Shown: piece after piece, positions 44,137-63,936 of the stretch
Position numbering within the stretch: the stretch's first letter is position 1
Layout: each line of letters begins with the position of its first letter
Assembly: GCA_965216875.1 (NCBI GenBank)
Contig: OZ244207.1
Coordinates: 7,936,001 to 8,000,000 of the forward strand
Source of the DNA: Rubripirellula sp.
GTDB taxonomy: Bacteria > Planctomycetota > Planctomycetia > Pirellulales > Pirellulaceae
Direction: 5' to 3'
DNA: 64,000 nt
The notes under the pieces: model-generated
The model's input: the letters and a program-made list of their open reading frames with translations, nothing else
What the model was told of the DNA's origin: nothing
The model's database searches: none
Made by a program: the position numbers and the translations under genes

Positions 44137-47100
44137 TTGATGTCGAAGCCGATTTCTTGTTTGGCAATCGCGACACTTCTGTTGTTTGCGCCATGCCACG
44201 TTGGATTTGCCGATGACTCTGTCTCGTTCACACGCGACATACGGCCGATTCTCTCTGAACACTGTTTTGCGTGTCATGGCCCCGATGCGGGGAAACGCGA
44301 AGCGGACTTGAGGCTTGATGATGCCGACGGTGTCGCTGGCGCCGTCACTGCAGGCGAAGTGAACGAAAGCGAGTTGTGGGAGCGGATCACAACAGATGAC
44401 GAAGATCTGGTGATGCCACCGCCAGAGTTCAACAAGCCGATCACCGAAGCGCAGCGTCGTTTGATTCGGAAGTGGATCGAGTCGGGCGCCAATGTCCAAC
44501 AACATTGGTCGTTCGTGACACCCCAACAACCCCCAATCCCCAATGTCGACGTTCCCAATGTCGACGTTCCTAATCCGATCGACGCGTTCTTACGGGCGCG
44601 GCTGGACAAGGCGGGACTTGAACCGTCGCCCCTTGCCGACAAACGAACGTTGATCCGCCGTGTCACCTTGGACTTGACGGGGCTGCCCCCAACCGAACAA
44701 GAGGTCGATGCCTTTCTCGCGGACCAATCCGAGGATGCGTATGAATCGCTGATCGATCGTTTGATGAGCCAAGTTTCCTACGGCGAACACATGGCACGTT
44801 ATTGGCTCGACCTTGCCCGTTACGCCGACACGCATGGTTTGCATCTCGATAACGAGCGATCGATGTGGCCCTATCGCGACTGGGTCGTACGGGCGTTCGC
44901 GGACAACCTGCCGTTTGATGAGTTCACACGCTGGCAGCTCGCCGGCGACCTGTACGAAAAACCGACTCGAGATCAACTCGTTGCCTCGGGCTTCAATCGA
45001 TGCAACGTGACCACCGGCGAAGGGGGAAGCATTAATGAAGAGTGGATCTATCGCTACGCCGTCGACCGAACCACCACTGCCGTCGAAGTCTGGATGGGAC
45101 TGACTGCGGGCTGTGCGGTCTGTCACGACCACAAGTTCGATCCGCTATCGATGCACGATTACTATTCGTTGTACGCGTTCTTTCACAGCGCGGCCGATCC
45201 CGCGATGGATGGCAATCGCATCGACACGCCACCCGTCCTCAAACTTCATTCCGACGAAGACAACGCGAAGATCGCTGCGATCGACAAGCGACTGTCGCAG
45301 CTCGAAGAGTCCCAGAAAGAGCGATTGGCAACTTACGACTATGTTGACCCAAGTTCGCTCGATCCTGTGCCCACGCCCGAAGAGGTTGAGACACTCTGGT
45401 TTGACGACGGTTTTCCTGAAGGCGCAAAACTGCAAAACAGCGGGCACCCCACAACTCTCGTTAGTAAAGATGAGGGTGAAGTTTTTGGTGGTGCAAAATC
45501 GTTGCGTCGCAAAGCCGGCGGATTGGAACAGGACTTTTACAACAGCGGTGCCGCCGACCTCGTCGTCCCCAACGACGGCATCGTGTTCGTTCACTGTTTC
45601 CTTGATCCCAAGGACACCCCCAAGACGATCATGATCCAGTTTCATACCGACGGTTGGAAACATCGGGCCGTATGGGGCGAACATGAAAAGATCCCGTTTG
45701 GCAAATCAGACACCACCGAAAAGGTCTTGATGGGGGACCTGCCCGAAGCAGGACGCTGGGTCCGTTTGGAAGTCGATGCAAAAAAAATGGGGCTCGGTGC
45801 GGGAGCCAAAGTGAAAGGTTACGCGTTCACCCAATACGCGGGTACCGTTCATTGGGATTCACTTGGCGTGACAGCGACCGTCGACAAAGTGAATGACCAG
45901 ATTTGGTCTTGGGAAGCATGGAAGAAACAAAACCAAGGCAAACGCAACAAGCAACTTCCCGAACATCTTTGGCGCATCGTCAAAAGCAAACAGCCCGAGA
46001 AGTGGACAGATGAAGAACGCAAGAGTCTTTTCGATTTCTGGCTCGCCAATTTCTATGCGGGCACGGTCGACCTGCTCGCGGACATCAAACGGAAACGCGA
46101 AGGTTTGGTGGAAGAAAAGGTGAACATCGAAAAGAACGTGCCTTTGACGCTTGTCATGGCCGACCTGAAGAAGCCTCGCGAGAGCTTCGTGATGCTGCGA
46201 GGTGCCTATGACAAACCGGGTGACAAGGTGTCGCGAAACGTTCCGTCCTTCCTGCCACCGCTTCCCGAGCGTCCATCCGATCGCGATTACAACCGCATGG
46301 ACTTGGCCAATTGGTTGGTCAGTGGTGAACACCCACTAACGGCACGCGTTGCAGTCAACCGATTCTGGCAACAGTTTTTCGGGACTGGAATCGTTCGAAC
46401 CAGTGGTGACTTCGGTTCGCAAGGCGAAGGCCCGTCTCATCCTGAGTTGTTGGATTGGCTGGCGGTCGAATTTGTCAACCAAGACTGGGACGTTCAAACG
46501 TTGGTCAAGCTGATCCTGACCTCTCACGCCTACCGTCAATCGTCCGAGGTCAGTGAAGAGTCGCTTGAGCTCGATCCGAGCAATCGTCTACTGTCGCGAG
46601 CACCCAGGTTGCGTCTTGATGCGGAAGTGCTGAGAGATCAGGCGCTGTCGTTGAGCGGATTGTTGGTGCAAACGGTTGGAGGCAAAGCGGTCAAACCGTA
46701 TCAACCGCCAAACATTTGGGAACCGGTTGGTTTTGGTGGAAGCAACACGCGTTTCTACAGACAAGACACGGGCGACGCGCTCTACCGGCGAAGCCTTTAC
46801 ACGTTCCTGAAACGCACCGCACCGCCTCCATTCATGTCGACGTTCGATGCGCCCAACCGCGAGCAGGTTTGTATGGGACGCCAGCGGAGCAATACGCCGA
46901 TGCAGGCGCTCCAGCTCATGAACGACATTCAACATGTTGAAGCGGCACGCCATTTCGCCTCTCGAATGCTTGCCGAAGGTGGCGAGGATGCGAAGCAGCG
47001 GATTCGCTGGGCCTGGGAATTGGCGACCGTCCGGCAACCAAATGAGGGTGAAGTCGAAGTGGCCCATCATCTGCTGGCGGAGTTTCAACAGCGTTACTAC

Positions 47101-47241
47101 GGGGACCCTGGAGCTGCGAAAGAGCTGGTCGAGTATGGCGAAAGCAAGCCTGATGAAAAGGTGGCTGATGCCGAGTTGGCGGCCTACACAATGTTGGCGA
47201 GCTTGATTCTTAACCTTGACGAAACCGTTACAAAGAACTGA
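44137..47241 (+). CDS. Planctomycete cytochrome c / DUF1549 (PSCyt2) / DUF1553 (PSD1) protein
   Basis: [78 protein letters not shown] and RRSLY. A 15-bp duplication lies at 44539-44568. Confidence 0.95.
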
Positions 47242-47255
47242 ACCGAGAAACCAAG

Positions 47256-48725
47256 ATGCACCCATTCCTTCAGCGTCAACATCTCGAAACGCGTCGTCAG
47301 TTTTTCCGTGGCGCCGGTTTGAACCTTGGTGCTCTGTCTTTGGCGAGCATGCTTGCGGGCGACGCGACCGCTGGCGATTCCGCCGCAACGACGCAAGTTC
47401 ACCCGTCACTGCCAGGGTTGCCGCACTTTGCACCGAAAGCAAAGCGGCTGATCTATTTGCACGCTAACGGTGCGCCGTCACAGTTGGACATGTTCGATTA
47501 CAAGCCGGGGCTGCAAGAGTATTTCGACAAAGAGCTTCCCGACTCGGTGCGTAACAACCAACGTATCACGACGATGACGAGCGGGCAGGCGCGTTTCCCG
47601 GTCGCGCCGAGCAAATTCAAGTTCAAGGCTTGTGGCACGTCGGGAATCATGATGAGCGAGCTTGTGCCGCACATGCAGGAGATCGCCGATGACATCACGA
47701 TGATCAAATCGGTTCATACCGACGCGATCAACCATGATCCTGCGTGCACGTTTGTGATGACTGGCAGCGAAGTGCCTGGAAAACCGAGTCTCGGTTCGTG
47801 GCTGAGTTACGGGCTTGGAAGTGAAAGTAACGACCTACCCGCCTTTGTCGTGTTCACCCCGACGTTCCCGAAAGACAGCCAAGCTCAAGCGTTGTTCACG
47901 CGGATGTGGAGCAGCGGATTCCTGCCGAGCAGTTTTGATGGCGTCGCGCTGCGTGGTAGCGGTGACCCGGTGCTCTACATCAAAAACCCACCCGGTGTCA
48001 GCGGTGCCGATCGACGCAGAATGCTCGATGCGCTGAACCAACTCAACGAGCAGAACTTTGAGCGCTACGGCGACCCCGAAACTCGAACGCGGATCGCCCA
48101 ATACGAAATGGCGTTTCGGATGCAGACGAGTGTTCCCGAGCTAACCGACCTATCGAGCGAGTCGAAGGAAACGCTCGAAATGTATGGGCCGAATGTTGAA
48201 AAGAAAGGAACGTACGCGTCGAGTGCCATCCTAGCTCGGCGTTTGATTGAACGCGGTGTGCGGTGTGTGCAGATCCTGCACCGCGGGTGGGACCAGCACA
48301 ACAACCTGCCAAGGCTGATCAAGAACCAGTGCGATGACGTCGATCAGCCGACTGCGGCGTTAATCAAAGATCTGAAACAACGCGGTCTGCTCGACGAGAC
48401 ACTGGTTGTCTTTGGTGGTGAATTTGGGCGCACGGTTTACTCGCAAGGCACGCTAACGAAAGAGAACTACGGTCGAGATCATCATCCCCGCAACTTCTGT
48501 ATGTGGATGGCCGGTGGTGGTGTCAAAGGAGGCATGACTTACGGCGAAACAGATGACTTCAGCTACAACATCGTGCAAGATCCCGTCCACCTGAATGATC
48601 TCAACGCAACAATCCTTCATTGCATGGGCATTGATGATCGCAAGCTGAGCTTCAAGTTCCAGGGGCTCGATCAAAGGCTGACGGGAGTCGAGCCGCCGCG
48701 CGTGGTCAACGAGATTCTGATTTAG
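47256..48725 (+). CDS. DUF1501 family protein (Tat signal)
   Basis: [18 protein letters not shown]...[31 protein letters not shown] and GRDHH. Confidence 0.95.
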
Positions 48726-51700
48726 ACGGTTGCGTTTTTTCCAGTTGGCTCAACGCCCACTGGGCTTCTTGACGCGCGTTTTGGTCTAGCAGCGATTGGT
48801 TCAACTCGTCGGAGGTCTCGGCGGCGATGATTCGCAAGGCATCGATCGTGTCTTTCTCGCCGAGCATGCCAAGTGCGATCGTTGCTGACTGCTGGACTTC
48901 AGGGGACGAGTGTTGTTGTCGCTTTCGCAACACTTTGATGTAGTCGCGATTGGCTGAGAAACCTGCTAGCCGGCAAGCGATTGACAGCGATTCGGGAAGA
49001 TCGTTCAAAACCTCTTGGTCGAGAATCTCGGCGAGTGATTGGCGATGCTTGGCCAGCTGATCGATGACTCGTCGATCATCACGGCCGCGTTGCAGTTTTT
49101 CATAACGCCGCTGGACCCACCGATGTTGTTCGAGGTAGAGCTGACGCAAGCCGTGCAGTCGTACCTTTGCATTGCGGTTTTTGAGCAACGCTTCGACGGG
49201 AAAAAGCGGTCCGTGACTGTAATAGGTGCCCCATGTGCTCCCCATTGGGCCGCCTGTCACCACGCTTTGTGCTGCGACGAGCGCGTGATGGGCTCGACTT
49301 ACGAGCGGCGTTTGGACGACAGCGTGTTGCGGTTGCGAGATCACGGGCGTGGCATGCGTTCGAAAGGAATCGGAAACAAACCCACCAGCAAAGACAACGC
49401 CGTTACGATCGGCCAACAACGACGTGACACGCGTGCTTTGATCGGTGTACCAATTTGTGCTGGCAATCGTGGAAGCAACACTCAAACGATCTGGCGGCGT
49501 TTTTTCGAATCGAAGTTGCTGCAGGCGAGTTTTCTGCTCGGCATTTCGTCCCGTCGCCAGCGGCTTGTCAAAGAGCATTGGAACGCCGGAGACCGTCCTG
49601 CCCACGGGGGAGTCGATCGTTTTTTGGCTGACAAGTGGCGTGGCGGTCGTTCGGTTAACGTCGGTGAGGGTCCAATAGCGTGCGCTGCCTAGTTGCGGGT
49701 AGCTGGTCATGTTCGCGCGAATCAAGTTTTGGTTGCCAGCGAGTCGCTGGACGGAAAGTCCTGTCATCGTTTCCCAAGATGGATGAAGCCAAGGCTGTGG
49801 ACTCAAAGCAATCGTTGCAGAGAAACCGTCGTTCGGATCACATGGCTGGCGTTGGTTCAGCTTGGTCCAGTCAAACCAAGGCGTGTTGCCGTTTCCGGCT
49901 TCTGCTTCACTTCGAACGATGCTTGTTGGTGGCTCGCCGTCGATCGTGATCGCCTCGGTGTGCATTCCAGCAACGCCCTCGGGTGCGATTCGGCGATCGA
50001 ACAGCCAGTGTCTTCCGTTCAAAAGCTGAAAACGCAGGTCCATGTTCATCGTTTTCGTTTTGCACAACACGCGTAGCGGAACGGCTTGCCCGCTGTCAGT
50101 CTTGATGTAATCGTGGAATTGAAACTCAAAGCTCGATGAACGCTCCACGAGTGGATATCCGGTCTCGGCGTCGATGACGACCAGGACACTGTTGCGGCGC
50201 GTGCTGGTGTACCCACCAACATAGGTTCCCTTAAGTCCCGATCCGAAGATTTGAGAAAAACCACCGCTGGTCAAGCCAAACACCTTCACAGGGCGGCCAT
50301 CGTGTTGTCCCTCAAAGCAGACGGGAACCTTCCATTGTTTGGAGTCAAAGGCGAGTGCATCCAGTGCTGTCGTGAGTGTCACACCACGCCGAATTTGTCC
50401 GTAGCCCGAGTCCGTATCCGCTTCTTCGGTTCGGTCAGAGAAGCGAAACGTGTATTGGATTCGCGCCTCGTCATCGCGTTCGGCTCGCAACCAGAACTGG
50501 TGATTGTCGAGGATGGCGACAAGTTCATCCGCTGGGCGATTGGCGACCGCGACTGCGGTGGACGGGATCGTGACGCAATACATCGGTTGCTTTTGAGCGT
50601 CGTAAAGGGACAGCAGAAAGCTTTGATCCCGTGAAGGCGTCATCGAACGTGTGTGAATCTCAGCGCTAAGTGTCGACGTCGGCCACTGGCCAGCCAGGTT
50701 TCTTGACGAGTCCGCCGGCATGAAGGTGAGCGAACGCGCGGACCTTGGCGAGCCGGTTTTGGTTGCCGGTTCGAGTTCATGTTCGTGGCCGAGTTCAACG
50801 GGGGTCAAGCCTTGAATGACGACCGGTGTGCTCGCGTCTTCGACCTGGGTCAAGTCGGTATGTTTTTGACGAGCCTCCTGCAAACGCCCGGTCAGGTCAA
50901 TTGCGCCATCGTTAAGCTTGATATCCGCAATCGTTTCCTTCTGTGGCGTCTTTCCCGCAAACGTCGACGTTCCTTCCTCAAGAATCCACAAGACATCTTG
51001 GGCAATTTTGAAACGGTGCTCGGTGCGAAACTGATGTTTGGGTACATCGATTTCGATGTGTCGTGGCGCGTGCTGGGAACCTCGTGAGGCGAAATCGGAA
51101 AAGGTGATCGTCGCAAGCTTCTCATCTCCCGCGAAGACTTCCTCGCTGAGAATGCGATTGGCGTTGTCGATGGTCAACATGGATCGTGTGATGCGAATGT
51201 CGTGAAGGTACGACCAGGAAGTGGTTTCGAACATCGCGCCCACGTTCAAGACTGATCTTCGACCCGGTTTGGACCTCAGTTCAACCAATCGTTTGTCGTC
51301 TCGAATTTGAAAGTCGCTGACGACGAAGTCGTTTGGGCGACGGCCCCAATCGAGAGAGGGGAAATTGAGTCGTGTTCCCGAGATCCGCCGTAGCGTCTTA
51401 CGGCGCATCAGTTCCGTTGCCGGCAGATTCAAACGCGTTGCCGATTTGTCGTTTTTGACCACTTCGCTGGGCGTTCGATAACGGGGGAAGGCGTCGCGGT
51501 TGGCATAGGTGTAGGTGGCGCCATCGGGTGCACCAATCTCCATCCAGCCTTGGCCGTAGCGTTGTGGTTCGTCGCCGCGATGAACGACCTCGACGCTTGT
51601 CGTGCCATCGCTCTGCCATTGAAAGGCTTCGTCAAGCACTTCAGGTGACATCTTGTGCGTGAACGTGATCGAACTCAGTTTGCTCAAATCGGGGTTTTGC

Positions 51701-53907
51701 CATAGTCGATTCGACTCGAGGATTTGCTGTGCATCGAACGCTTCGGCGCGGCGTTGGCCTTGCTGCTCTTTCGCGAGAAGTTGGGCGAGTTCATCGGGTG
51801 TGGTCGGGAATGAATCACGTTTGCTGCCGCCTTGGACGATCGACTTTGTCTCTCCTGTCGCTTCGTCGATCATCGACTTGCTGTCCGCGGACCAACGAGG
51901 TTGAGTTGCTTGATCAAAGGCTTTTTGAAGGGAGTCGCCGTTGCGTTTGGCCAACCAAATCTCACGCCGGGTGTCGGAGTTGCCGTCATGGCGCAGCGAA
52001 ATGGATTGTGTCCACGCGACCCAGTTTGAATCGGGTGACCAAAGGGGACGTATGCTCCCACTGAGAAACCAGAATTTGCCGTCGCGGTCACTTTGGTTTC
52101 GCGCTGGGGGCGAGATGGTTTGCATGGTGCGTGTTTGCGTGTCCCAAATTCCGATCCGTCCGTCGCACGGGATTCCAGCGGACCACGACCCGCCTCGGAT
52201 GATCTCGGTTGACACGGCGATGTAACGTCCGTTGGGCGACCACGCCGCGCCAACGCCAAACGCGCCTGTCTCGTCAACGTTCCCCGTTTCAACGTCAACA
52301 ACGACCAGCGGGTAGTTGGCGACATAACTGGCTGCGTTGCCAATCGCGAGTCGCTTCGAGTCAGGTGACCAGGCTGGCGTTGTCTTCAGAGCCTTGCTCA
52401 GCAGACGCCGCGTTTGGTTGGTCGCCCAGTCATGGACAAAAAGGCCGTACTGTCGCGTGCCATCGTCGAGTGTCAGGGAGCCGACGTAGGCGGTCTGCTT
52501 CTTGTTGGGTGCGGCGACCTCGTAAGTTGGATCGCATTGCGGAGGCAATTGACCCGCCGCCACCTTCTCGTCGGTGCGGGGCTGTTGGGGCTGAGCAACC
52601 GGTGTTGCGTCGGCTTCCGAGCCAAGCGGTTTGCCAACGAGTAGCAACGGGCAGATCGCCACAGCAAGCAAGAGCGAAAGGGTGAAGGAGGCGCGTGGAT
52701 TGCCTGGCGAAGCGTTTCCGGTTTGGATCGACGAGATGCGTTCACGCAGTGATCGAAGCGGACCGAGGCTCCCCGTTGTAAGTTGTCGAGGCACGGTGTT
52801 TCCGGCAACGAAATCGATGGTGTCGACAATTGTCGCCGCGTACTGCGATGCACGCTCAGGCCACTGTCGCAAGACGGAAGCATCGCATGCCATTTCCTCG
52901 GCGTCTCGCAATCGTTTTCGCGCAAACCAAAAGATCGGGCACCACCACCAAAGCATCGTTGCCAGTAGTTCGATCCAGCGGACCCAATGGTCGCGGCGAC
53001 CGACATGTGCAAGTTCATGGGCAAGTAGCAGTTCGCGTGTTTCCCGTTCGCGCATCGCGGGAAGGTCGCGGGGCAAAACGAGCGTGCAACGACCGACACG
53101 ACTCCAAATCATCGGTGGGATGGGAGCTGCGAGAACGAGTACGTCTGGCGTTCGACTGGACGACAATCCCATTTGAGTTGCTAACCGTTGAACATCACAC
53201 AGGAGGTTCGCTTCGGCAGGTTCAGCGAGGGATAGTAAACGGCGAAAGTGTTTCAGATTGCGAAGTGTGATCAGCAAGACGAGCAGCGTTCCAAAGACCC
53301 AAAGAGGTACCGCGATGCCCAGCAACGACCATCCGCCGGTCGGTTCGGCTTTCGCCGTTACGGGCGTCGCCGCGACAGGCATCGTTGTCGCGGGTATCTG
53401 GGGGGCGTCTTCGGAATCGACGGTCGGTGGAGGTGCGGTGGCATTCGATGTTGCGTCGGCCGCGACAGGCATGTTTGTGTTGGCTGAGGATTCAACATCG
53501 AATGCCGACGCATCGATCTCGGTCGCCGATTCTTTGATGGGCTGATGCAGTTGTGATTCGGGACCAGCAACGGTCGGTTCCAGGTACCGCTGTGCCTCAT
53601 CCAATGTGTTTGTTTTCAAGAACTCAGGACTTGGTTGCGGACGTTTTTGAGCATCCGACGGTATTTCAATCCGTGAATTTCTGGCCAACCCTTGGTCTGT
53701 CGCAGGCAGCTGTGGCAGCCCGGTGATCGCGATTGGCAAAACAGGCGGGACGATCAGCCGTAAGAGCACGACGACCCAGAAAGCGTGTTCGATTGCAGGG
53801 TGTCGCCGCCGAGTCAGCAAGCCAACGAGCAACGCGACAAGCATCAACAGGGTTGCGATCGTCAGGACATTGACAACGACATGCGCGGCAAATGCAGGCG
53901 ACATCAT
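48706..53907 (-). CDS. BlaR1/MecR1-type M56 metallopeptidase with large extracytoplasmic region (PD40 propeller, two beta-sheet repeats, HEAT-like end)
   Basis: N-terminal TMs, [20 protein letters not shown] and EMACD. Repeats AWSPDSK, AWSPNGR, LWSPDSN and RWSADSK. Confidence 0.9.
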
Positions 53908-53953
53908 GCGTTCTCTCCTGTAAGTCAGGATCAGGGTTTTCGATCAAACGTTG

Positions 53954-54346
53954 CTATTTCGATTCTTTGTTTTCTTTGAGCATTCGACGAAGCGCTTTTT
54001 GTTCTTCGTCGGTAAGCTTGCGCATGCCAATCAAGCCGGTTAGCATGGGCAACAAGGCACCGTCGCACAGTGAGTGCGAAAGGTCTCGCAAGCGGTGTTC
54101 GATCAGCGATTGGCGGTCGATCGCCGCGCTGAACCGGTGAGTACGCTCGCTGCGATCTCGAAGAACGCAGCCGCGTTTCTCCAAACGTTCAAGCAGCTTT
54201 TGCACCGTGTAGTAATGCGATGCTTCACCCCCAGGGTAAAGCTCGTCACAAACTTCACGCGTCGTCGCTTGCTCGTTTTCCCAAAGCACCTGCAACACGG
54301 AGAGTTCCGTGTCGGTGACGTGGAATGTCTTCTCTTTGCCGGACAT
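53954..54346 (-). CDS. BlaI/MecI/CopY-family repressor
   Basis: TELSVLQVLW, ATTREV and YTVQKLLERLEKRG.V.R; GGAGA RBS before ATG 54346; directly upstream of the M56 gene. Confidence 0.93.
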   Translation of the reverse strand: MSGKEKTFHVTDTELSVLQVLWENEQATTREVCDELYPGGEASHYYTVQKLLERLEKRGCVLRDRSERTHRFSAAIDRQSLIEHRLRDLSHSLCDGALLPMLTGLIGMRKLTDEEQKALRRMLKENKESK

Positions 54347-54363
54347 GGTCTCTCCGATCTCGT

Positions 54364-54428
54364 TCAAAGACGGGTTGTCTTTGAGTCAATTAGAGACACT
54401 GTCCACTTCAAAGTCAAGTTGTCTTTTT
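54364..54428 (-). promoter_or_regulatory. Sigma70-type promoter of the blaI-M56 operon with two operator-like palindromes
   Basis: Minus strand TTGACT (54417-54412), 17 bp, TCTAAT (54394-54389). Palindrome TCAAAGAC-N5-GTCTTTGA at 54364-54384 and a 16/19-identical copy from 54408 covering the -35. Confidence 0.75.
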
Positions 54429-55160: not shown

Positions 55161-58100
55161 CTAGGGCATTGCAATCTCAACCGCCAAAGGTTCGACCCAA
55201 ACCTTTTGTTCGGCGGTGTAGTACAGATAGGTGCGTGAAGCGGGGCCGGTGTACTTGCCTGGAATCTCGGCCGTCACCGTGAACTCGATCTCTTTCGATT
55301 CACGCGGCGCGATCGTTCTCCAGTAGAAGACCACTTCACGCCCGCGCAGTTCGTAGTAGTCAAACTCACCAGCTTCCTTCAACTCATCAAGTTCATCCTG
55401 GCGAGGTTCCAAGCCGCCGGGCAGCCCAACGATGGCGACCGTCATGGGTTGGCCCTGGTCGGTTTTGTTTTCCAACACGGTTGACACGGTCATGGTGTCG
55501 CCGGCTGCGACATTGGCATCGGCATTCAGGTTCGTCGTTAACTCGAAGGGACATCCGTCGTCACTTCGTGGGGTGATCGCGTGGTAAGACAGGTCGATAC
55601 TGTAGGAAAGATTGCGTGCGTTTTTGGCGACCAATTCGATCGTGGCACCAGGTTCGGCGTCTTGCAGGTGTTGGCCGAGACCGACAATCTCGACGGTCGA
55701 GCCACTCTCAGGACGCGTTGGCAATTCGGCTTGCCCAATCACTTCGCCGTGCAGGAGCACTTGCAGCTTTCCGCCACCACCGGAATTGCCTGAGTGTTCC
55801 GCGATGGCAACGAGTGCCTTGAGCGCGAGTACTGTTGCTTGGGTGGAGCCAAAGCCTGCGTTGCCACGACGATTGGTCGTGATCCACTTGGCAGCAGCGC
55901 GAGCGTTGTCGATGTATTTTGGGCTCTTGATGAAAGCCAAAGTCGCCAGTGCGGTCGTTTCGACTTTGAGGGAGACGCCGCCGCTCGAGGTGACCGTTGT
56001 CTTGCCTTGCAGCAGCCCGTCTTCCCCTTGGGCTTGGGCAAGTTTCTGGAGCAACGCTTCGCCTTCGGTGGTTCGTTTGACGTTCATCAACGTTGCCGCA
56101 GAGAGTGCGATCAAGTAGGGATCGTCCGACTTGTTTGCCACCGAATGCATGTGATCGATTTCAGTAGCCAATTCGCTTGCGGCTCGTTGCGAATGTCCGG
56201 TGGCCACATCGGCCTCGCTGATTGCCCACAAAACGTAGGCGTTGACGATTTCCTGTTTGACCGACCAAACATGCAGGTGGCGTGGGTTGCGATGGAATCC
56301 GCCCTTGCCGTCGCGGCGACCCATCAACCACTTTCGCGTGCGAACCATCATGACATCGTTGACTTCCATGATGGCGGCCATGTCAGTGAACTGCATCAAT
56401 CCGAACGCCGACAGTGCCTCATGCCCCGGATCCTTTCCGAACCACTCGTAGCCACGTTTCTCACATTCGAAGCTGGTCAGTTTCGTGTAGCCTCGATCGA
56501 GCATGCCGCGAGCACGTCGTGAGACGTCGGGATTGGCGATGTCGTTCTTCTGCATGTACTGCAGAGCCATCGTGTTAGGGTAATTCGTCGCCGAAGTTTG
56601 CTCGAAGCATCCATGCGGCTCACGAAGGATGCTTTCGACGCCCGACATCACATCAGCGAGGGGCGACGGATAGGCTCGCAGGGTAACGGCAAGCGAACCA
56701 TCGACGATGTCATTGGGGACCGGCAACTGGACCGTTGCCCTGCGAGTGAGCACACCAGCAAGTGATTCGGATGCGGGATAGCCAGCGGGCGAGATATGAA
56801 CCTTGCGACGCACGGTGTCACGCAGGCTTGTTCCGGCGACGCCACCGATTTCGATTTCGGCGTCGATTTCAGCGCTGCCTTCGACAACGTCGATCGCGAC
56901 GTGATGTCGAGTGCGCTGGTTCCCGCCAAGGCTGAGCATCTGCGTGTCTTGATCGGCTACCTTTAATTCGTCACTCGCTTTGACTGCGAGTTCGATTCCA
57001 ACGTCGCTATCGGTTGCATTGATAACGGCAACGGGTAAATCGATACGGTCCCCAGTGGTAACTTCCAGTGGCAGCTTCGGTTCGATCTGGAAGGGTAGAC
57101 GCGATGTGACCATGCCACCGCCGGAACCGAGGCGTCCGTCAAGGGAGTGCCCGTCGACATGCACGCGAAACGTGGTGACAGAATCGGAAAGGTCGAACCG
57201 GATACTCGCTTCACCTTGTGAATCGGTCTTGACCAGCGGCTGCCAATAAAGCGTTTCCGCAAAGTCTTCGCGTACTTCATCCGACCGCTTTGGGTGTTGA
57301 TGGGCGTACTGGCGAACGGGGAATTGCAATTCACTCATCAATTGATCGGCAAGCGTCTTGGCGTCGATGCCCCGAGCATTCAAGAGTTGTTCAAGTTGCT
57401 CAGGCGAAATCAATCGACTGACGTCCGCACGGTCGCCCTTTGAGATCGCGTGGTACTTTGCGTAGCGGGCGTTGTCGGAATCGTCGTTTTCGCCGGTGGA
57501 TCGGTTTGCCAAATTGGATCGATTCGCGAAGCCGGGACCCGTTTGCGCGACGACGGCCGAATCGGCGGGGGCTTCCTCAGGTGCCTCGATGACAGGATCG
57601 TCGGTTGCAGCATCGGCGACGGCTCCCGCGGCGGGCGCGTCGGCCATTGGGGCCGGCGGCGGGGTCGCGGAAGGTTCCGTGCGTCGGTTGCGAGACTCCA
57701 CTTTTGCAGAGAACTCTTCAGTTTCCATGGCCGCATCGGCGCGTTCGTCGACTTGCTGGCTGGCTGGCATGATGACGGAGTTTTCCGATGCGCTGCACCC
57801 GACCAGTAGCCACGAAACGGACGTGACCAGAAGTAAGGCGGCAACGCTTGAATGGGCGGCAGACCGCAATCGAACGACGACCGCGCCAAGCCAAATCAAC
57901 AGCACGGCGAGCATCAAAAAGCGTGCTTGAACCAGCAGGTGCTCCCACGCTCCCGCGAGGGCGACGCGGTACTGATGGAACTGTTGATCAAAGGTCCCAC
58001 GATTGTCGAACGACGGTGGCACCGCTGCGATTTCCTCGCCATCCAGTTCCAGCAGTCGAATCAATTGTTGGCGGAAATCGACATCGGCTTCGCTCGCCGT

Positions 58101-60455
58101 GCCGCTGACGAATCGACGCCAACCTTGCGTTCCAAGCAGCAAGTCGAGTGATTCTTCGGCGCCCTCTTCGTCGCTCAAGTAAAAGTTGGCGTGTTCCAAA
58201 TCTTCTGGCGACTGAACTTCGCTGGTCAGCATAAAATGGGTCTGCATCGATGGTCGTTCGTCTTCTTCAAGACTGAGCGCGGCATCGTCGACGACCGCGA
58301 TGCCCAGGATCGCCGGTGCTGGCTTGCCCTCTTCGTCAGTCACTTTCAACTTCAGTCGCAACGGTTCGCCGGGTGAACGTTCGTGGTCTGCTTCCGTACC
58401 GACAAGTGACACATTCAATTGCTGGTCGTTGCGACGGAAAACGAGTCGTTCGACAAGTGGTTGATGCGAATCGCCATCGATCACCGTGACGCGGATCACG
58501 CCACTGATGCCATTGCGAATGGGCAAAGTCAATTTGTTGTCGCCAAGGAGTAGCTGCTTTTGAAGCTCACCAACCAGCTGGCCGCGACAAACCGCACGAA
58601 CGATCGCGGTTCGCTTCGAGTTCGAACGCAGGACAAGCGAGAGTTGTTTGTTCGCTCCGAACACGCCAGTGCCTGTGTCCATGACGGGCAAGTCCTTGAC
58701 GACCGCAGGAAGTTTGGGTGTGTTGGTGACGTCGACCGGTTGCAAGACCTTTAAGGTGTATCGTTCGCCCATGGAAGGAACAAATTCGAAGCGTCCCATT
58801 CCGTCACGTACGGTCTGGATCGTGGCGACACTTTGGCCCGAGCGTGATTGGATTTCGCCTTGCACATGGATCGGCTCGCCGAGCGAGTCGCGAGCAGAAA
58901 AGTAAACTCGATTGAGCAGGCCTTCGACCAAGTATCCACCCTCGGGGTAAAACTCGACCTCGACGCGTCCGAGCTGGATCGGAATCGTTTTCGATTGTGT
59001 CTCTTGAGTGGCTCCATCGTCGACGGTGATCGAGAGGCGGCCGGTGCCGTCACGAACGAATTCGGGAAGGTTGAACGTCGCAACGAGTGTCCCATCGGCA
59101 GCCGTCGTTGTCGCTTGTTCATGAATCACATCGCCATCGACTACGGCGGTGACCTGTGCTGAGACGTTCGCCAGCGGACCACCGGTTGCAAGCTCGGCTT
59201 TGAATTCGGCTTCGACCGTTTCGCCGGGACCATAACTGCGACGTCGAAACTCGATTTCTTTCTTGAACTGAGGAACGCGGTAAGCTCGCACTTGGACTTC
59301 ACGTTCTTCATCAGGGAAGAAGCCGTCAAGGCTTTTCGCGACCAGCTTGTACGTTCCGCCAGCAGCCGTCGTCGGGAGTGTGAACGCACCGTTGCCAACG
59401 CCTGATTCGGTGACACCTTCGGTGTACATGCCAGCGACGGCAGCGCCACTTGGATCAAAGAGCTCAAAGCGAATCGGAACTTCGAAACCTGCTTGCAACG
59501 TGCGACGCTGCAACGTGAGCGAGCGGAAAAAGATCGTTTCGCCGGGTCGGTACACGGGACGATCGATCGATAGGTGCGTGATGCAACGTGTTGGCTCGAG
59601 AGGGATTTCGAGTGTCGATCGACTGACTTGGCCGCCGGCAGAGGTGGCGGTCACGACCAAACTTGAACCTTCGGGGATCAACAATGAATCGGGAAGGACG
59701 ACGCGCCCCGAACCATCACTGTTGGTTTCGGCAGTGCCCGAAAAGAGCACATTCCTTTGACACAGCACCGAGAACGAGAGCGACGCGGGCACAACCGGGA
59801 AACCTTGGACGGCCCCTGCATCCATGCGTGATGTCGTGAAGCGAAACTCGTTGCTCGATGCAGCTTCATGCGCTGTGGCTGGTTCGGCTTGAACTCGCAG
59901 CGCCGCCACGGGCTGTTCGGGGGCACGCTCGGTGTAGTTCCAAGCGATGATTGCGAAACCGATCGAAGCGGCCGTTGCGGCGATCACGGTCGAACGCCGG
60001 ATCCACTCACGCGTACTCAAACGAGTCACCGGTTTCGCTGGTGGTGCTGGCGTTTCCGATGGTTGGGTTGGCTTCGCTGGTGGTTCCTCGACCAAGTCGG
60101 CTAGCACGGGAGGCTCGTCGTCGGCTTTGCTGTCTGTTTTGTCGGCCGTGTTCAGATCGCCGAGTCGATTGGCGGGAACGGTCGCAAACGTTGGGTCCGA
60201 GGTGTCCACATGGGAGCGGCCATTGGAACTTGGTTGTGCGTCGACCAACGCACGAACGTCAAAGTCAGGCGTTTGCGGTGATTGCGCTTTCGCGGCGTTT
60301 GCAATCTTGCCGGCTAGCCGCAATGTTTCGGCCCACAGGGCCGCCACGTCGGGTTCGGTCTCGATTCGGCTACGAAGCTCGTTTGCTTCTTGCTCGTCCA
60401 GCAAGTCGTAGTGAAGTTCGAGGAGTTCTTGTTGCAGTTGTTCTTTGGAGTTCAT
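55161..60455 (-). CDS. Alpha-2-macroglobulin-family thioester protein with N-terminal anti-sigma-like domain
   Basis: IDRPVYRPGETI.FR (MG2), FYPEGG, IAVVDDAAL, VREDFAETLYWQP...DSVTTF, thioester PHGCFEQTS (CFEQ at 56598-56609) and C-terminal PGKY.GPASR.YLYY. N-terminal LLELHYDLLDEQEA..LRSRIE plus a TM. Confidence 0.92.
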   Translation of the reverse strand: MNSKEQLQQELLELHYDLLDEQEANELRSRIETEPDVAALWAETLRLAGKIANAAKAQSPQTPDFDVRALVDAQPSSNGRSHVDTSDPTFATVPANRLGDLNTADKTDSKADDEPPVLADLVEEPPAKPTQPSETPAPPAKPVTRLSTREWIRRSTVIAATAASIGFAIIAWNYTERAPEQPVAALRVQAEPATAHEAASSNEFRFTTSRMDAGAVQGFPVVPASLSFSVLCQRNVLFSGTAETNSDGSGRVVLPDSLLIPEGSSLVVTATSAGGQVSRSTLEIPLEPTRCITHLSIDRPVYRPGETIFFRSLTLQRRTLQAGFEVPIRFELFDPSGAAVAGMYTEGVTESGVGNGAFTLPTTAAGGTYKLVAKSLDGFFPDEEREVQVRAYRVPQFKKEIEFRRRSYGPGETVEAEFKAELATGGPLANVSAQVTAVVDGDVIHEQATTTAADGTLVATFNLPEFVRDGTGRLSITVDDGATQETQSKTIPIQLGRVEVEFYPEGGYLVEGLLNRVYFSARDSLGEPIHVQGEIQSRSGQSVATIQTVRDGMGRFEFVPSMGERYTLKVLQPVDVTNTPKLPAVVKDLPVMDTGTGVFGANKQLSLVLRSNSKRTAIVRAVCRGQLVGELQKQLLLGDNKLTLPIRNGISGVIRVTVIDGDSHQPLVERLVFRRNDQQLNVSLVGTEADHERSPGEPLRLKLKVTDEEGKPAPAILGIAVVDDAALSLEEDERPSMQTHFMLTSEVQSPEDLEHANFYLSDEEGAEESLDLLLGTQGWRRFVSGTASEADVDFRQQLIRLLELDGEEIAAVPPSFDNRGTFDQQFHQYRVALAGAWEHLLVQARFLMLAVLLIWLGAVVVRLRSAAHSSVAALLLVTSVSWLLVGCSASENSVIMPASQQVDERADAAMETEEFSAKVESRNRRTEPSATPPPAPMADAPAAGAVADAATDDPVIEAPEEAPADSAVVAQTGPGFANRSNLANRSTGENDDSDNARYAKYHAISKGDRADVSRLISPEQLEQLLNARGIDAKTLADQLMSELQFPVRQYAHQHPKRSDEVREDFAETLYWQPLVKTDSQGEASIRFDLSDSVTTFRVHVDGHSLDGRLGSGGGMVTSRLPFQIEPKLPLEVTTGDRIDLPVAVINATDSDVGIELAVKASDELKVADQDTQMLSLGGNQRTRHHVAIDVVEGSAEIDAEIEIGGVAGTSLRDTVRRKVHISPAGYPASESLAGVLTRRATVQLPVPNDIVDGSLAVTLRAYPSPLADVMSGVESILREPHGCFEQTSATNYPNTMALQYMQKNDIANPDVSRRARGMLDRGYTKLTSFECEKRGYEWFGKDPGHEALSAFGLMQFTDMAAIMEVNDVMMVRTRKWLMGRRDGKGGFHRNPRHLHVWSVKQEIVNAYVLWAISEADVATGHSQRAASELATEIDHMHSVANKSDDPYLIALSAATLMNVKRTTEGEALLQKLAQAQGEDGLLQGKTTVTSSGGVSLKVETTALATLAFIKSPKYIDNARAAAKWITTNRRGNAGFGSTQATVLALKALVAIAEHSGNSGGGGKLQVLLHGEVIGQAELPTRPESGSTVEIVGLGQHLQDAEPGATIELVAKNARNLSYSIDLSYHAITPRSDDGCPFELTTNLNADANVAAGDTMTVSTVLENKTDQGQPMTVAIVGLPGGLEPRQDELDELKEAGEFDYYELRGREVVFYWRTIAPRESKEIEFTVTAEIPGKYTGPASRTYLYYTAEQKVWVEPLAVEIAMP

Positions 60456-60994
60456 GATTGACCTCCCACTGATTCACGAAGCTGTCGAATGGCAGCACGC
60501 ATTCGGGTCTTGACGGTGCCCAGCGGCAGGGAAGTTGCTTCGGCGATTTGTTCGTAGGTGAGCGAGCCGTTTTGGCGGAGCAAGAAGACTTCTTGCTCTT
60601 CCGGACGCAGGTTCAGCACCGCGTGCTGCAGCGTCTGCAATTGCTCGTCTCGCATCAGGCCCGCGTCGGGCCCATCGGCGGTCGATACCATTTGCACATC
60701 CTCGACAATCGACTGCCGCCGCCGATTCCAAGCGGTCTTGCGACAGTCACGGCCAGTGTTAAGAGCGACGCGAAACACCCATGCCTTGAGGTTGGTGACT
60801 TCCGAGATTTGATCTTGGCGTCGCCAACACTTCAGGAAGGTTTCTTGCAGCGCGTCGCGTGCGTCTTCCATGTTGCCGACCAGGTAAAACAGCGTCCCCA
60901 AGATTTCTCCGTGCGCATCCGCAAACAGCGTCTCGAGCCGTTGGCCAGAGTCCGCCGTCTCGTGCGATTCGGACGTCGGGGGCGTGGTTTTCAT
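60452..60994 (-). CDS. ECF (sigma-70 group 4) RNA polymerase sigma factor
   Basis: DARDALQETFLKCW, AWVFRVALN, L.PEEQEVFLLR and YEQIAE.....GTVKTRM; ATGA overlap with the downstream gene. Confidence 0.95.
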   Translation of the reverse strand: MKTTPPTSESHETADSGQRLETLFADAHGEILGTLFYLVGNMEDARDALQETFLKCWRRQDQISEVTNLKAWVFRVALNTGRDCRKTAWNRRRQSIVEDVQMVSTADGPDAGLMRDEQLQTLQHAVLNLRPEEQEVFLLRQNGSLTYEQIAEATSLPLGTVKTRMRAAIRQLRESVGGQS

Positions 60995-61120
60995 GGTTCT
61001 GCAGGTATGACGACAAGGCCGCCGCCACGGATTTCATTTTCTGCCAGAAATCCAGCGTGCCGCTCATTCTAGCCCCGTTAGGGACAGGGCATGCTGGCGA
61101 TCCGATCCGCGAACGCTGAC

Positions 61121-61271
61121 CGTGAGTCGAACGCGTTAGCGTCGGGCTTTTGTTCCGTAGCTACGCTCGCCAGAGCGTGGTTTAAGTGGGATGCGGACAA
61201 CCAATGCGGACCACCTTCTGGCGAAGGTAGCTACCAGCAGGCAAGGTCCCGAACGCAGCACGTTCGGCTCA
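61121..61271. repeat. Nested REPIN: C pair inside B pair
   Basis: B at 61121-61147, C1 (GTAGCTACGCTCGCCAGAGCGTGG) at 61157-61180, inverted C2 at 61211-61234 and degenerate B' at 61245-61271. Confidence 0.88.
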
Positions 61272-63116
61272 AAGCTGTTCGATGCGTTTGAGCGATTCGG
61301 GCGGGATGAGCCCGTACGTGTGAATGTCGTCGAAATGGACTTTGGCGCCGGGGACGACCAGCTGAACGAATCCATTGGCTGCTTCAGGATTGGCGCGCAC
61401 ACTGCCGATTAATTCGCCGTTGAAGAAGGCAAACCAATACTCACCTTGTAACTCGGCTCGCACAAATTGATAACGTGGCACGTCCTCGCCGTCGTCGGCC
61501 GGGCTGATGACCAGTTCCTCTTTGACGTCGAGTTTGCCTTTCAACCCTTCACGCGAACCCAAGAAGACTCTGTCTTTCTCGACACGGACAGCGAAGCGAT
61601 CCGCTTCATCGAAGTCTTTGTTGGTGAATCCAAAATGAATCTCAGCAGCCTCGGCCGATTGCAGGTCGACGCCGACATTGATGCCGACCGCATCAGGAAG
61701 TCCTTCATAGAGTGTGCTTGGACGAGGGATCGATTTTGCCCATGACCCACGCGTTCCTTGCAAGATCGTTCCCCCTTCGGCATCTTGCCCGCGGCTCCAC
61801 AACCCAGATTGAGAGAGCAGGTCGACTTGTTGGCCATTGAACAAGGGGACTTGCCAGCCGCTGACAAGCATCGTCGGCTGCGGCGGTGACATGAGGAAAA
61901 AGGCAAGCCACGCGATGCCAGCGAGGACCGCGGTGATCGCGATCAAGCGAACGAAGATGGGCGGCTTTGAGCCGGGTTTGGGTGAGGGTGTGGATGCCGG
62001 TGTGTCGCGAGTGATCGATGGATGCGAGTCATGCAGTTTGATCGGCGCTAGCGATCGGTTTTGCGAGTCGGTGAGACCGTCGATGCGTTCGATCAGCGTT
62101 TGATAGTCACCGATGCGATCGTCGGGATCGGTTTCCATCATGTCGTCGATCAACGCGCGAACACTGTCGGGCAAATCGGCAGGCAATCGATCCGCGTCGT
62201 ACTTCTTGCCAGTCAACTTGGCGGCGATCAATTTCGACACCCTTGATTCGGCAAGCGGCGGTTTGCCGGTAAGCATGTTGACCAGGGTTGCGCCCAACGC
62301 ATAAATGTCGGCGCGATGATCGGTCGGGTCCCCCGAAAGCTGTTCGGGGGCGCAGTACATTGGCGTTCCGAGTGCCGCACCACTCATTGTTAATCGGGTT
62401 GCGTCTTCGTTGTCCGCATGGGGGCTTAGTCGAGCAAGGCCGAAGTCGGCGATCTTGACCAGTGGTACGCCTGGCGGAAGGTCATATCCAGTGGGGACTG
62501 CCGTCAGGATCAGATTGCCTGGCTTGATGTCTCGATGAACGATCTGTTGAGACAGTGCGTGTGAGAGTCCCGACGCGGTTTGTCGCACAATCGAAAGTGC
62601 CGTTGGCAAATCCATCGCGCCATCACTGTCAAGTTTCTCGCGCAGGTCCGTCCCTTCGACGAGTTCCATCACCAAGTAGAGCCGGCGATTGTGAGAGCCC
62701 GAATCAAACGCGCTGACAATGTTTGGATGTTGCAACCTTCCGATCGCCGCCCCTTCTTGTTGGAATCGGGCGGCAACGTTTTGTTCGACAAGACGATTCT
62801 GCAGGATCGCCTTGATGGCGACGTCACGTTTGAGATGCGGCTGGTGTGCTCGATAAACAACTCCTAGGCCGCCGTAGCCAAGCACATCGACAAGCTCAAA
62901 CCCGGGAGCAAGATCGGTCGGCGCCGCAAAGGCTTCCGCAATCTCGACGTCGATTGGACGAAGCATCCCCGTTTCAAGTGCAACCTGGGACGCTGTTTTG
63001 GCGCGATCGACCGATTCACGCCGCAGCGTTTCAGCCTGGTCGGCTGAGAGCAGACTTCGCGCATGCGCTGCGGTGATGAACGCATCCGATTTTTCGGTAT
63101 CAAAATCAGAACTCAT
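61269..63116 (-). CDS. Membrane Ser/Thr (Hanks-type) protein kinase with C-terminal DUF1080/LamG-like domain
   Basis: LGYGGLGVVY, VAIK, HRDIKPGN, DFGLA, GTPMYCAPEQ and DIYALG; one TM; GWQVPLFNG...VHFDDI. Start trimmed to MSSDF. Confidence 0.93.
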   Translation of the reverse strand: MSSDFDTEKSDAFITAAHARSLLSADQAETLRRESVDRAKTASQVALETGMLRPIDVEIAEAFAAPTDLAPGFELVDVLGYGGLGVVYRAHQPHLKRDVAIKAILQNRLVEQNVAARFQQEGAAIGRLQHPNIVSAFDSGSHNRRLYLVMELVEGTDLREKLDSDGAMDLPTALSIVRQTASGLSHALSQQIVHRDIKPGNLILTAVPTGYDLPPGVPLVKIADFGLARLSPHADNEDATRLTMSGAALGTPMYCAPEQLSGDPTDHRADIYALGATLVNMLTGKPPLAESRVSKLIAAKLTGKKYDADRLPADLPDSVRALIDDMMETDPDDRIGDYQTLIERIDGLTDSQNRSLAPIKLHDSHPSITRDTPASTPSPKPGSKPPIFVRLIAITAVLAGIAWLAFFLMSPPQPTMLVSGWQVPLFNGQQVDLLSQSGLWSRGQDAEGGTILQGTRGSWAKSIPRPSTLYEGLPDAVGINVGVDLQSAEAAEIHFGFTNKDFDEADRFAVRVEKDRVFLGSREGLKGKLDVKEELVISPADDGEDVPRYQFVRAELQGEYWFAFFNGELIGSVRANPEAANGFVQLVVPGAKVHFDDIHTYGLIPPESLKRIEQL

Positions 63117-63309
63117 GATGCGCAGTGAAGGTCCCGGCGAGCCGTTTCGAGACAGCGAGCATCCCGGTCGCGAAGGAATTCGAGACGGGTGCCAGCGTCC
63201 ATTTTGGATGAAAGGGGCTGCCACCAGGATACTACGCCGATGGCCGTTACGCCCACCGCCCAGAACGGATCTGGGCAGAAACCGTAACGGCTGATATTCA
63301 AAGCCGTGG

Positions 63310-63936
63310 CTACATCAGAGAGTCAAGTTGCGTCAAAAGCGCCTTGATCGAGGGGCGGTCGCTCGGATCACGTCCGACGTAGGACAACACCACCTGCCCC
63401 TCTTTGTCGATGATGAACGATGACGGAAATGCCACTCTCGCTTCGATATCAAGCTGTTTGACGGCCGTCAGGTTTTCATCCAGCAAAATGGGGAACGGAA
63501 AATTGGCTTCCGACGAATCCTTCAAGCTTGCTTGACGAAAGTCATCGATCTGGCCGGTTTTGCCTGGATAGACAAGCAAGACTTCGGTGTTGCGTTCCAC
63601 GAATTTCTCGTAGTTGGCAATCAAACGAGAGGTCTGTGTTGTGCAATAGGGACAGATCTGGCCAGAAAAGCCACGTGTGAAGACGAGCAGAACATGTTGG
63701 TTGCCGATGAAGTCGGCGAGTTTGACTGATTGGCCGTTCGTGTCGACAAACTCGAGATCGGTCACGCTGCCGGGAGATTCGCGGTTCGTTTCGACGCTCT
63801 CTTCGAATTCAATGCTCGCGGGATCAAAATCGTAGTAAGACGATGTCGATGGTGATTGGGAGCAGCCAAGTGTGCCCAGGACTGGCAACAGCGTCACCAG
63901 CAATATCAAGGCTGTTGATCGAGACATGAAGTCCAT
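63310..63936 (-). CDS. AhpC/TSA (peroxiredoxin-like) lipoprotein
   Basis: Lipobox TLGC; V.L.DF, FTRG....CPYC, FPILLD and PSSFIIDKEG. Confidence 0.88.
   Translation of the reverse strand: MDFMSRSTALILLVTLLPVLGTLGCSQSPSTSSYYDFDPASIEFEESVETNRESPGSVTDLEFVDTNGQSVKLADFIGNQHVLLVFTRGFSGQICPYCTTQTSRLIANYEKFVERNTEVLLVYPGKTGQIDDFRQASLKDSSEANFPFPILLDENLTAVKQLDIEARVAFPSSFIIDKEGQVVLSYVGRDPSDRPSIKALLTQLDSLM

Follow-up and report, generated by a model that had tools for sequence, protein, structure and literature searches.

An ECF sigma factor paired with a predicted class I anti-sigma factor that carries an animal-type thioester protein as its outer part in Planctomycetota

In the genome of the planctomycete Rubripirellula sp. 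(GenBank assembly GCA_965216875.1), a stretch of 64,000 nucleotides of contig OZ244207.1 (positions 7,936,001 to 8,000,000; hereafter the window) carries two overlapping genes on its reverse strand (Table 1). The first encodes a 180-amino-acid (aa) extracytoplasmic function (ECF) sigma factor, recognized by its Sigma70_r2 and r4_2 domains and by a match to TIGR02937 above the cut-off. The second, joined to it by an ATGA overlap, encodes a protein of 1764 aa in which a predicted class I anti-sigma domain is fused to an alpha-2-macroglobulin (A2M)-like thioester protein of the animal type with a membrane hairpin in its bait region. This combination is real and conserved, and apparently undescribed. 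The GC content is even across the locus (0.55-0.58), and the nearest named homologues all belong to the Pirellulaceae (Rubripirellula, Novipirellula, Stieleria and Roseimaritima). A reading made beforehand from the letters of the window (the sequence-only reading) had reported the overlapping pair and the lack of an adjacent pbpC. Both open reading frames (ORFs) exist; pbpC is not among the neighbours of the pair, which is adjoined by a kinase gene and a BlaI/BlaR pair, and the transglycosylase family PF00912 has no match anywhere in the genome (99%-complete).

The N-terminal domain of the fusion was modelled as three helices (residues 3-15, 21-33 and 35-57; predicted local distance difference test (pLDDT) score 88) followed by an acidic and proline-rich linker, in agreement with the short helical domain and disordered linker seen beforehand. 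The domain of the window protein itself has no Pfam or NCBIfam match above the cut-off, zf-HC2 included, so the case for an anti-sigma function rests on its family. An alignment of 115 such domains, each taken from behind a homologous sigma factor, grades from the zinc-less form into canonical HxxxCxxC forms, with a zf-HC2 match in 10 of the 115; the HxxxCxxC motif of ZAS domains, present in relatives, is missing from the window protein, whose first cysteine lies at or after residue 232. When the family profile was compared with the PDB, the best natural protein was Mycobacterium tuberculosis RslA (E 0.016), with three designed helical repeats ranking higher. A Foldseek search with the model placed MucA in the top four rows (E 0.26-0.46), and in the VIA comparison PupR, RskA, RsiW, RslA and MucA made up five of the top six rows (Z 5.3-6.1, root-mean-square deviation 2.4-6.0, 53-62 aligned residues). 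What counts in this set of weak fold matches is the agreement among them.

The predicted complex of the sigma factor with the N-domain scored 0.83, against 0.00 for the best of three controls; the mark applied to this score is reached by 116 of 157 solved complexes and by 2 of 215 mismatched pairs. The runs shared at least 76% of their contacts, with a partner pLDDT of at least 84. In the predicted interface, N-domain residues 8-18 contact sigma residues 162-176 and residues 47-59 contact sigma residues 118-142, with sigma2 residues 28-45 also involved; the nearly invariant Tyr16 and Ala54 are located within it. Sigma2 and sigma4 are thus both engaged in the predicted complex, as in the class I anti-sigma domain (ASDI), which is defined by a dual interface with helix 1 on sigma4 and the last helix on sigma2 (PMC7406223). 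The model and the family relationships indicate that the N-domain is almost certainly an anti-sigma domain, as the sequence-only reading had supposed, of the zinc-less ASDI kind and predicted to inhibit the sigma factor.

The pairing was examined from both sides. Starting from the A2M, the C-terminal half had matches at E <=1e-20 in 123 of 401 genomes of the phylum, and gene context was assessed in a set composed of 60 fetched regions and 80 further loci, de-duplicated, together with the sigma-side loci that retain the thioester domain (TED). A bait helix was present in 72/72 A2Ms preceded by a close homologue of the window sigma factor and in 0/29 A2Ms without a sigma factor, which mostly start with a signal peptide directly before macroglobulin (MG) domain MG2; the 11 A2Ms with a distant sigma factor were divided (6 with the bait helix, 5 without), and 17 loci lacked enough flank for their context to be judged. 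Starting from the sigma factor, matches at E 1e-20 were obtained in 117 of 301 genomes of the family, and 60 longer regions were selected among the 120 listed places, most of them (49) low in the list and 11 high. The N-domain directly follows the sigma factor in 29/29 top loci and in 56 of the 60 longer regions. Since the relatives share kinship, these counts are tallies, not tests. The pairing of sigma factor and anti-sigma/A2M fusion, proposed beforehand from one copy, is conserved across Planctomycetota. Matches were also obtained in 13/301 and 3/301 genomes of two other phyla, and none of the 10 fetched had the sigma factor or the N-domain.

A second clade, found through a distant zinc-finger-bearing member, has HxxxCxxC in 110/120 sequences, GCxEQ in 120/120 and two bait helices in 116/120; its gene context was seen for L082 and L086 only, both with a sigma factor. 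In this clade (including L082:5200-10050), helix 3 is followed by a pilin-like DUF1559/SBP_bac_10 segment in 64/120 sequences, and nine have a lipobox-like motif, so that the bait of this clade often begins like an abundant exported protein. Several other architectures were recorded. Loci L083, L085 and L087 encode anti-sigma/A2M fusions whose bait region has five or six membrane helices, and their sigma factors are more distant. Two sigma-less A2Ms (L088:4797-9824 and L090:7459-12498) have six to eight helices in the middle, with the thioester domain in a separate following frame. Seven hairpin-less A2Ms (L033, L036, L040, L044, L045, L063 and L072) begin with an anti-sigma-like N-terminus, with a zf-HC2 match in four or five; they have distant sigma factors where the context allows a judgement and are placed among the secreted forms in the tree, which suggests separate fusion events. 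Secreted relatives of about 1330-1440 aa (L039, L041, L051 and L322-L328) start right at MG2, apparently without MG1.

The outer part of the fusion was described beforehand as a full A2M with an intact thioester, and this description holds. Pfam matches include MG2 (residues 294-385), A2M (1068-1156), TED (1269-1549) and a C-terminal MG10/receptor-binding domain, with GCFEQ at residues 1282-1286. The model of residues 591-1764 (mean pLDDT 82.6), which excludes residues 174-590, has A2ML1 and CD109 as its best matches (E 2e-43 and 6e-41, in the range 1e-43 to 1e-40), and together with Pfam it gives the MG ring, CUB, TED and MG8 architecture of thioester proteins. The comparison with Escherichia coli YfhM and its PBP1C partner drawn in the sequence-only reading fits less well, the sequence being nearer human A2M (E 6e-29), A2ML1 and CD109 than YfhM (E 7e-11). 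Only about 120 residues separate helix 1 from MG2; judged from this spacing, there would be space for one MG domain before MG2, hence about eight in all. A disordered bait followed by an RxxF plug, as in thioester proteins, is present too. GCFEQ is found in 118/120 homologues (the remaining two are partial sequences), and the plug residues Arg1062 and Phe1065 in 120/120 and 119/120, respectively. From this conservation it follows that the trap of this copy is intact and under selection, the thioester bond and trapping being predicted. A further residue of the domain, His1395, aligns with a His of CD109; it is His in 86/120 homologues and Asp in 31/120, a split that recalls hydroxyl- versus amine-preferring thioesters, and all 86 His-bearing homologues also have the lipobox-like Gly-Cys at the end of helix 3.

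Of the single membrane helix proposed beforehand, the helix at residues 155-173 stands, but the singularity does not, as two stronger hydrophobic helices lie at 845-863 and 871-889 (hydropathy 2.2 and 2.1, versus 1.5 for the first). They were modelled as helices 819-862 and 869-885, forming a hairpin between the linker region and the disordered bait (residues 886-1016, pLDDT < 50). Both helices are present in 106/120 homologues and one in 12, and two sequences have no anchor motif. In 106/106 two-helix homologues the hairpin loop has more K/R than D/E, as expected of a cytoplasmic loop. The likely topology would place the N-domain inside and MG1 to the first half of MG6 (MG6a) outside, with the hairpin crossing the membrane and the bait, the second half of MG6 (MG6b), MG7, CUB, TED and MG8 outside. 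In helix 1, positions 162 and 163 are Ala in 82% and 86% of 120 homologues.

Table 1 Features of the sigma factor/anti-sigma-A2M locus (positions are those of the window)
Feature	Position	Strand	Basis or remark
Predicted ECF-type promoter AATC-N17-CGTC	61009..61034	-	About 15 nt 5' of sigma start; motif in 79/96 relatives
ECF sigma factor, 180 aa	60452..60994	-	Sigma70_r2, r4_2, TIGR02937; stop overlaps next start (ATGA)
Anti-sigma/thioester-protein fusion, 1764 aa, three predicted membrane helices	55161..60455	-	Pfam, hydropathy, model
Predicted class I anti-sigma domain without zinc ligands (aa 1-62)	60270..60455	-	Family profile, fold matches, predicted complex
Variable acidic/Pro-rich cytoplasmic linker (aa 63-154)	59994..60269	-	Conservation 0.10-0.18
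Membrane helix 1 (aa 155-173), conserved Ala162-Ala163	59937..59993	-	Hydropathy, homologue alignment
MG1-MG5, first half of MG6, linker region (aa 174-790)	58086..59936	-	MG1 and MG3 limits inferred from spacing
Membrane helix 2 of bait hairpin (aa 845-863), basic loop after it	57867..57923	-	Hydropathy, model
Membrane helix 3 (aa 871-889), lipobox-like Gly886-Cys887 at end	57789..57845	-	Hydropathy, alignment
Disordered bait region (aa 890-1016)	57408..57788	-	Low pLDDT; conservation 0.14-0.16
RxxF plug (Arg1062, Phe1065), start of MG6 second half	57261..57272	-	Alignment; mechanism from PMC9156758, PMC9352918
Thioester domain TED (aa 1269-1549)	55809..56651	-	Pfam; GCFEQ at 56598-56612; His1395 at 56271-56273
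C-terminal MG8/receptor-binding domain (aa 1637-1764)	55161..55547	-	Pfam, model

Just 5' of the sigma start, the promoter pattern AATC-N17-CGTC occurs in 79 of 96 relatives, compared with 4 on the reverse strand, 6-14 with other spacings and a mean of 2.9 in shuffles; the same set of 96 upstream regions had served to derive the pattern. This predicted promoter suggests, with good support, that the sigma factor transcribes its own operon. The five best sites in the genome precede this operon and genes for a DUF4349 lipoprotein, a 2123-aa secreted protein, a DUF2784 membrane protein and a YfbK/vWA lipoprotein. A wide conserved regulon was considered and rejected: the YfbK/vWA site recurs in 7/30 loci, one of which belongs to a genome without a match to the sigma factor, and the DUF4349 site is rarer still (see below). 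A regulon beyond the operon itself is a lead that these candidate sites provide. The 2123-aa protein (L262:1036-7404), which belongs to no Pfam family, is common in PVC (Planctomycetota, Verrucomicrobiota and Chlamydiota) bacteria; it was dismissed as an A2M relative, having no BLAST similarity and no PDB match, with atlas leads to MG2/A2M clusters below 0.9. Elsewhere in the same genome, long vWA/YfbK frames are located beside ECF sigma matches (G000:C1:7517473-7521787 and 1353619-1356801), and these are probably ECF226-like pairs.

The 60 sigma-side regions revealed that the trap is not kept everywhere. In 17 the partner has a thioester-type TED, with a frameshift at the motif in one of them; 11 have a decayed TED or a long C-terminal part without the motif, and 26 have an intact ORF of 970-1340 aa that stops after MG6, with 2 more frameshifted; the remainder comprises one unclear region, one partnerless and two with distant sigma factors and other partners. 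These losses surfaced only in the sigma-side search, the A2M-side homologues keeping GCFEQ in 118/120. The TED-less partners, found in several genera, end 53-83 residues past the start of MG6b; they retain a bait (median about 190 residues) and, in 25 of the 26, the hairpin, the other having a single helix. That the missing domains are supplied by the next gene was ruled out, with no MG7, TED or MG8 match downstream in 26/26 loci (5.7-7.9 kb available). In the sigma tree (FastTree, midpoint root), partners with the thioester branch at the base and also within groups of TED-less ones, a pattern suggestive of repeated loss of TED; because the query that found the outer taxa contained TED, TED-less forms would be missed among them. 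In two relatives (L251 and L256) the gene is interrupted just past the hairpin; in L251 the frame becomes nonsense before the stop, which is likely an assembly error.

In the animal A2M family, bait cleavage pulls a conserved Arg-x-x-Phe plug from the channel of the MG ring (PMC9156758, PMC9352918). This plug is found in 16/16 thioester-bearing sigma partners, in 0/26 scorable TED-less ones (2 not scorable) and in 0/2 scorable decayed ones (8 not scorable). Since the sigma factor, anti-sigma domain, MG ring and hairpin were kept after the loss of both TED and plug, retention of the switch does not depend on the thioester, and on this comparison thioester activation cannot be a requirement of its conserved form. 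The sequence-only reading, which proposed a relay from bait cleavage or an activated thioester to the sigma factor, is supported in part: thioester and plug are intact and conserved in this copy, but as a general mechanism thioester activation conflicts with the 26 TED-less and 11 decayed partners. In the strict version of that reading, bait cleavage in thioester-bearing copies would lead to A2M collapse and thioester exposure as the signal, and the TED-less relatives would have switched cues or be decaying. The co-conservation of thioester and plug (in the 16 partners and in 118 and 120 of 120 homologues), the basal position of thioester-bearing partners and the combination of motifs in the second clade are in its favour, as is the greater divergence of TED-less partners, in which MG3 is detected in 13/28, versus 4/4. 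We nevertheless regard it as unlikely, because the TED-less partners are intact in several genera, end cleanly 53-83 residues past the start of MG6b and keep sigma factor, hairpin and long bait.

It is distinctly unlikely that the A2M part is a mere passenger, i.e. that an operon of sigma factor, anti-sigma factor and A2M was fused into one gene and the anti-sigma factor answers a generic envelope cue at helix 1. Anti-sigma factors with swappable ectodomains are known (ECF226, ECF289 and ECF25; PMC7826278), the candidate regulon includes lipoprotein versions of the vWA/DUF3520 and DUF4349 ectodomains, and the trigger plug is dispensable, all of which would suit such a history. Against it, the MG ring, MG6 in both its halves and the bait hairpin outlast the loss of the trap arm, and the hairpin tracks the sigma-linked state (72/72 vs 0/29); a passenger would have no use for them.

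The end of helix 3 offers another explanation. The lipobox-like Cys887 is internal, not N-terminal, and the motif, a candidate site of lipid processing, is conserved in the nearest clade: Gly-Cys closes helix 3 in 86/86 nearest-clade homologues (89/120 overall), among variable neighbouring columns, most of them less than 50% conserved. Helix 3 could thus be an internal signal peptide whose cutting gives a two-chain protein like pro-C3, so that the switch reports the maturation of envelope proteins and not foreign proteases; the cutter would be the lipoprotein signal peptidase in the nearest clade or the prepilin peptidase in the second. The helix resembles lipoprotein signals, Lgt and LspA are encoded, the pilin-like segment of the second clade comes after helix 3, and signal peptidases are known as site-1 proteases of anti-sigma factors (PMC8844934). 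We consider this explanation very unlikely, given that 31/120 homologues and most TED-less partners have neither motif, that the full prepilin cleavage motif occurs in only 3/120 second-clade sequences, that no description of an internal lipobox was found among the papers listed, and that a cut after helix 3 alone would leave the N-domain unreleased.

The reading that we prefer, and hold to be somewhat better than an even bet, is an autoregulated switch of an ECF sigma factor and a class I anti-sigma factor in which the three-pass anti-sigma factor is also a working trap and the sigma factor is freed by regulated proteolysis. Inside the cell, the N-domain would clamp the sigma factor, holding sigma4 through helices 1-3 and sigma2 through the last helix. 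Outside, the MG ring would be suspended between helix 1 and the hairpin, which tethers the flexible bait to the membrane. Helix 1 may lose its protection when proteolysis or envelope damage affects the outer part, bait cleavage being the obvious route in thioester-bearing copies, and a site-2 membrane protease could then cut this helix. The fragment would end in Ala-Ala, an ending of the type by which cut anti-sigma fragments are marked for ClpXP. With the fragment degraded, the sigma factor would be free to drive transcription of its own operon, which would renew the spent trap, and of genes for a few envelope proteins, the YfbK/vWA lipoprotein among them. Coupling would pass through the MG ring and hairpin, with the thioester arm as an effector attached to the switch and not a required part of it. 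M50 proteases are encoded in the genome, with no RseP orthologue pinned down among them. Membrane class I anti-sigma factors are usually released by regulated intramembrane proteolysis (PMC8103513), and the same release is proposed here. Less well supported is the inference that the cue is damage to the outer part, in the simplest case cleavage of the bait; a relay from such cleavage to sigma release would be plausible.

Several points weigh against this autoregulated switch. The fold matches are individually weak for a helical bundle (the Foldseek E values above, and Z < 8), and similar complexes have already been solved, so the complex score may show likeness, not binding. Cleavage of the bait, some 700 residues away from helix 1, does not amount to a site-1 cut of the classical kind. 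As the TED-less partners have no canonical plug, A2M collapse is impossible there. A separate lineage combines zf-HC2, sigma factor and A2M without the hairpin (5 loci), and the two sigma-less loci L088 and L090 have a multi-helix bait; the hairpin is therefore neither necessary nor sufficient everywhere. Genome-wide enrichment of the promoter is weak (26 sites above 17 bits, compared with 4-20 in five permuted controls), and the DUF4349 site exceeds 13 bits in only 1/16 loci. The signalling steps themselves are proposals throughout.

A more far-reaching version of the switch is possible, if doubtful: a true receptor of two membrane-anchored chains, split as pro-C3 is, which would trap the protease of a predator, phage or competitor, with the pull of the cleaved bait on the hairpin licensing intramembrane cleavage and sigma release. 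If this is true, the fusion would be a complement-like sensor and effector in one polypeptide, ancestral in several planctomycete lineages, and both trap-less receptors and sigma-less secreted traps would derive from that ancestral form. A role as protease receptor is possible for the thioester-bearing copies and is not the conserved minimum.

The RslA-SigL, RskA-SigK, RsiW-SigW, MucA-AlgU and RseA-RpoE pairs share with the window pair the position of the anti-sigma gene directly after the sigma gene, a helical N-domain on sigma2 and sigma4 (here in the model), a membrane helix and an autoregulatory promoter. The fusion differs from them in its 1600-residue thioester outer part and two extra membrane helices, and in the loss, in the window lineage, of zinc ligands that are present in relatives. 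Human A2M, A2ML1, CD109, TEP1 and C3/C4 share the MG1-MG8/CUB/TED layout, CxEQ, a disordered bait, the RxxF plug and the CD109-aligned His; these animal proteins are secreted or surface-anchored effectors, to which the fusion adds a cytoplasmic regulatory domain and the bait hairpin. Neither a cytoplasmic regulatory domain nor a bait with a membrane hairpin is known to us from any animal thioester protein. Type I bacterial A2Ms (YfhM/ECAM and Salmonella A2M) are likewise periplasmic and anchored in the inner membrane, with CxEQ and a bait-triggered trap (PMC4498604); unlike YfhM/ECAM, the fusion has an anti-sigma domain in place of the N-terminal lipoprotein signal, no pbp1C operon and, judged from spacing, probably about eight MG domains rather than ten.

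Putative anti-sigma factors of ECF226 and ECF289 (vWA with DUF3520) and those with DUF4349, which occur in planctomycetes, share an anti-sigma domain, a membrane helix and a large ectodomain of which a free lipoprotein version is found too; they have a different ectodomain without thioester or bait and a single helix, and are uncharacterised. DdvA of the DdvA-DdvS pair of Myxococcus xanthus is a transmembrane class I anti-sigma factor with a periplasmic proteolysis domain of the immunity type and a proposed release by regulated intramembrane proteolysis (PMC11506125). It carries a caspase-like TPR-CHAT domain and controls CBASS/CRISPR, whereas the window fusion has a protease trap and likely a regulon of envelope proteins. 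No description of a macroglobulin/anti-sigma/ECF wiring was found in the literature covered, in line with the sequence-only reading, whose author knew of no characterised example; the texts or supplements of Wiegand 2020, Jogler 2012 and Budd 2004, outside that coverage, might mention the pairing. In the available part of the ECF re-classification supplement (PMC7826278) 'macroglobulin' appears in no group description, and the class I anti-sigma table of PMC7406223 contains no GCFEQ or related motif of the window family.

Thioester proteins are known as effectors of innate immunity, the bacterial ones as passive traps. Linked to a sigma factor, the A2M fold would become a signal receptor through which the cell might detect attack by proteases, and this would give direct access to the question whether, and by what means, bacteria perceive foreign proteases in their periplasm. 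Natural controls exist within the family, in which the trap may be present, decayed or absent, the hairpin missing or the protein secreted; a promoter suited to reporter work is predicted, and among the carriers are cultured bacteria (Stieleria, Novipirellula, Roseimaritima and Roseiconus). The debate on the origin of thioester proteins also gains a broad group of animal-like members from free-living bacteria.

Upstream of the pair, on the same strand, are a membrane Ser/Thr kinase gene and an AhpC/TSA lipoprotein-like gene (window 61269-63936), and downstream (48706-54367) are genes for a BlaI-type repressor and for a BlaR1/M56 protein of 1733 aa that contains WD40-like and HEAT repeats. Among 41 loci with at least 2.5 kb of upstream sequence, a kinase match was found in only 4, and the kinase was rejected as a part of the unit exerting phosphorylation control; the other neighbours are not conserved with the pair either (AhpC-like in 0/41, BlaI and BlaR in 1/41 loci). 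Two more A2Ms, both of the bacterial type, are encoded in the genome, a TPR-rich protein of 2790 aa (L271:4135-12504) and one of 2009 aa (L272:3245-9271). Further along the window (44137-48725), ORFs of 1034 and 489 aa resemble the pair of DUF1549/DUF1553 and DUF1501 proteins that is common in planctomycetes.

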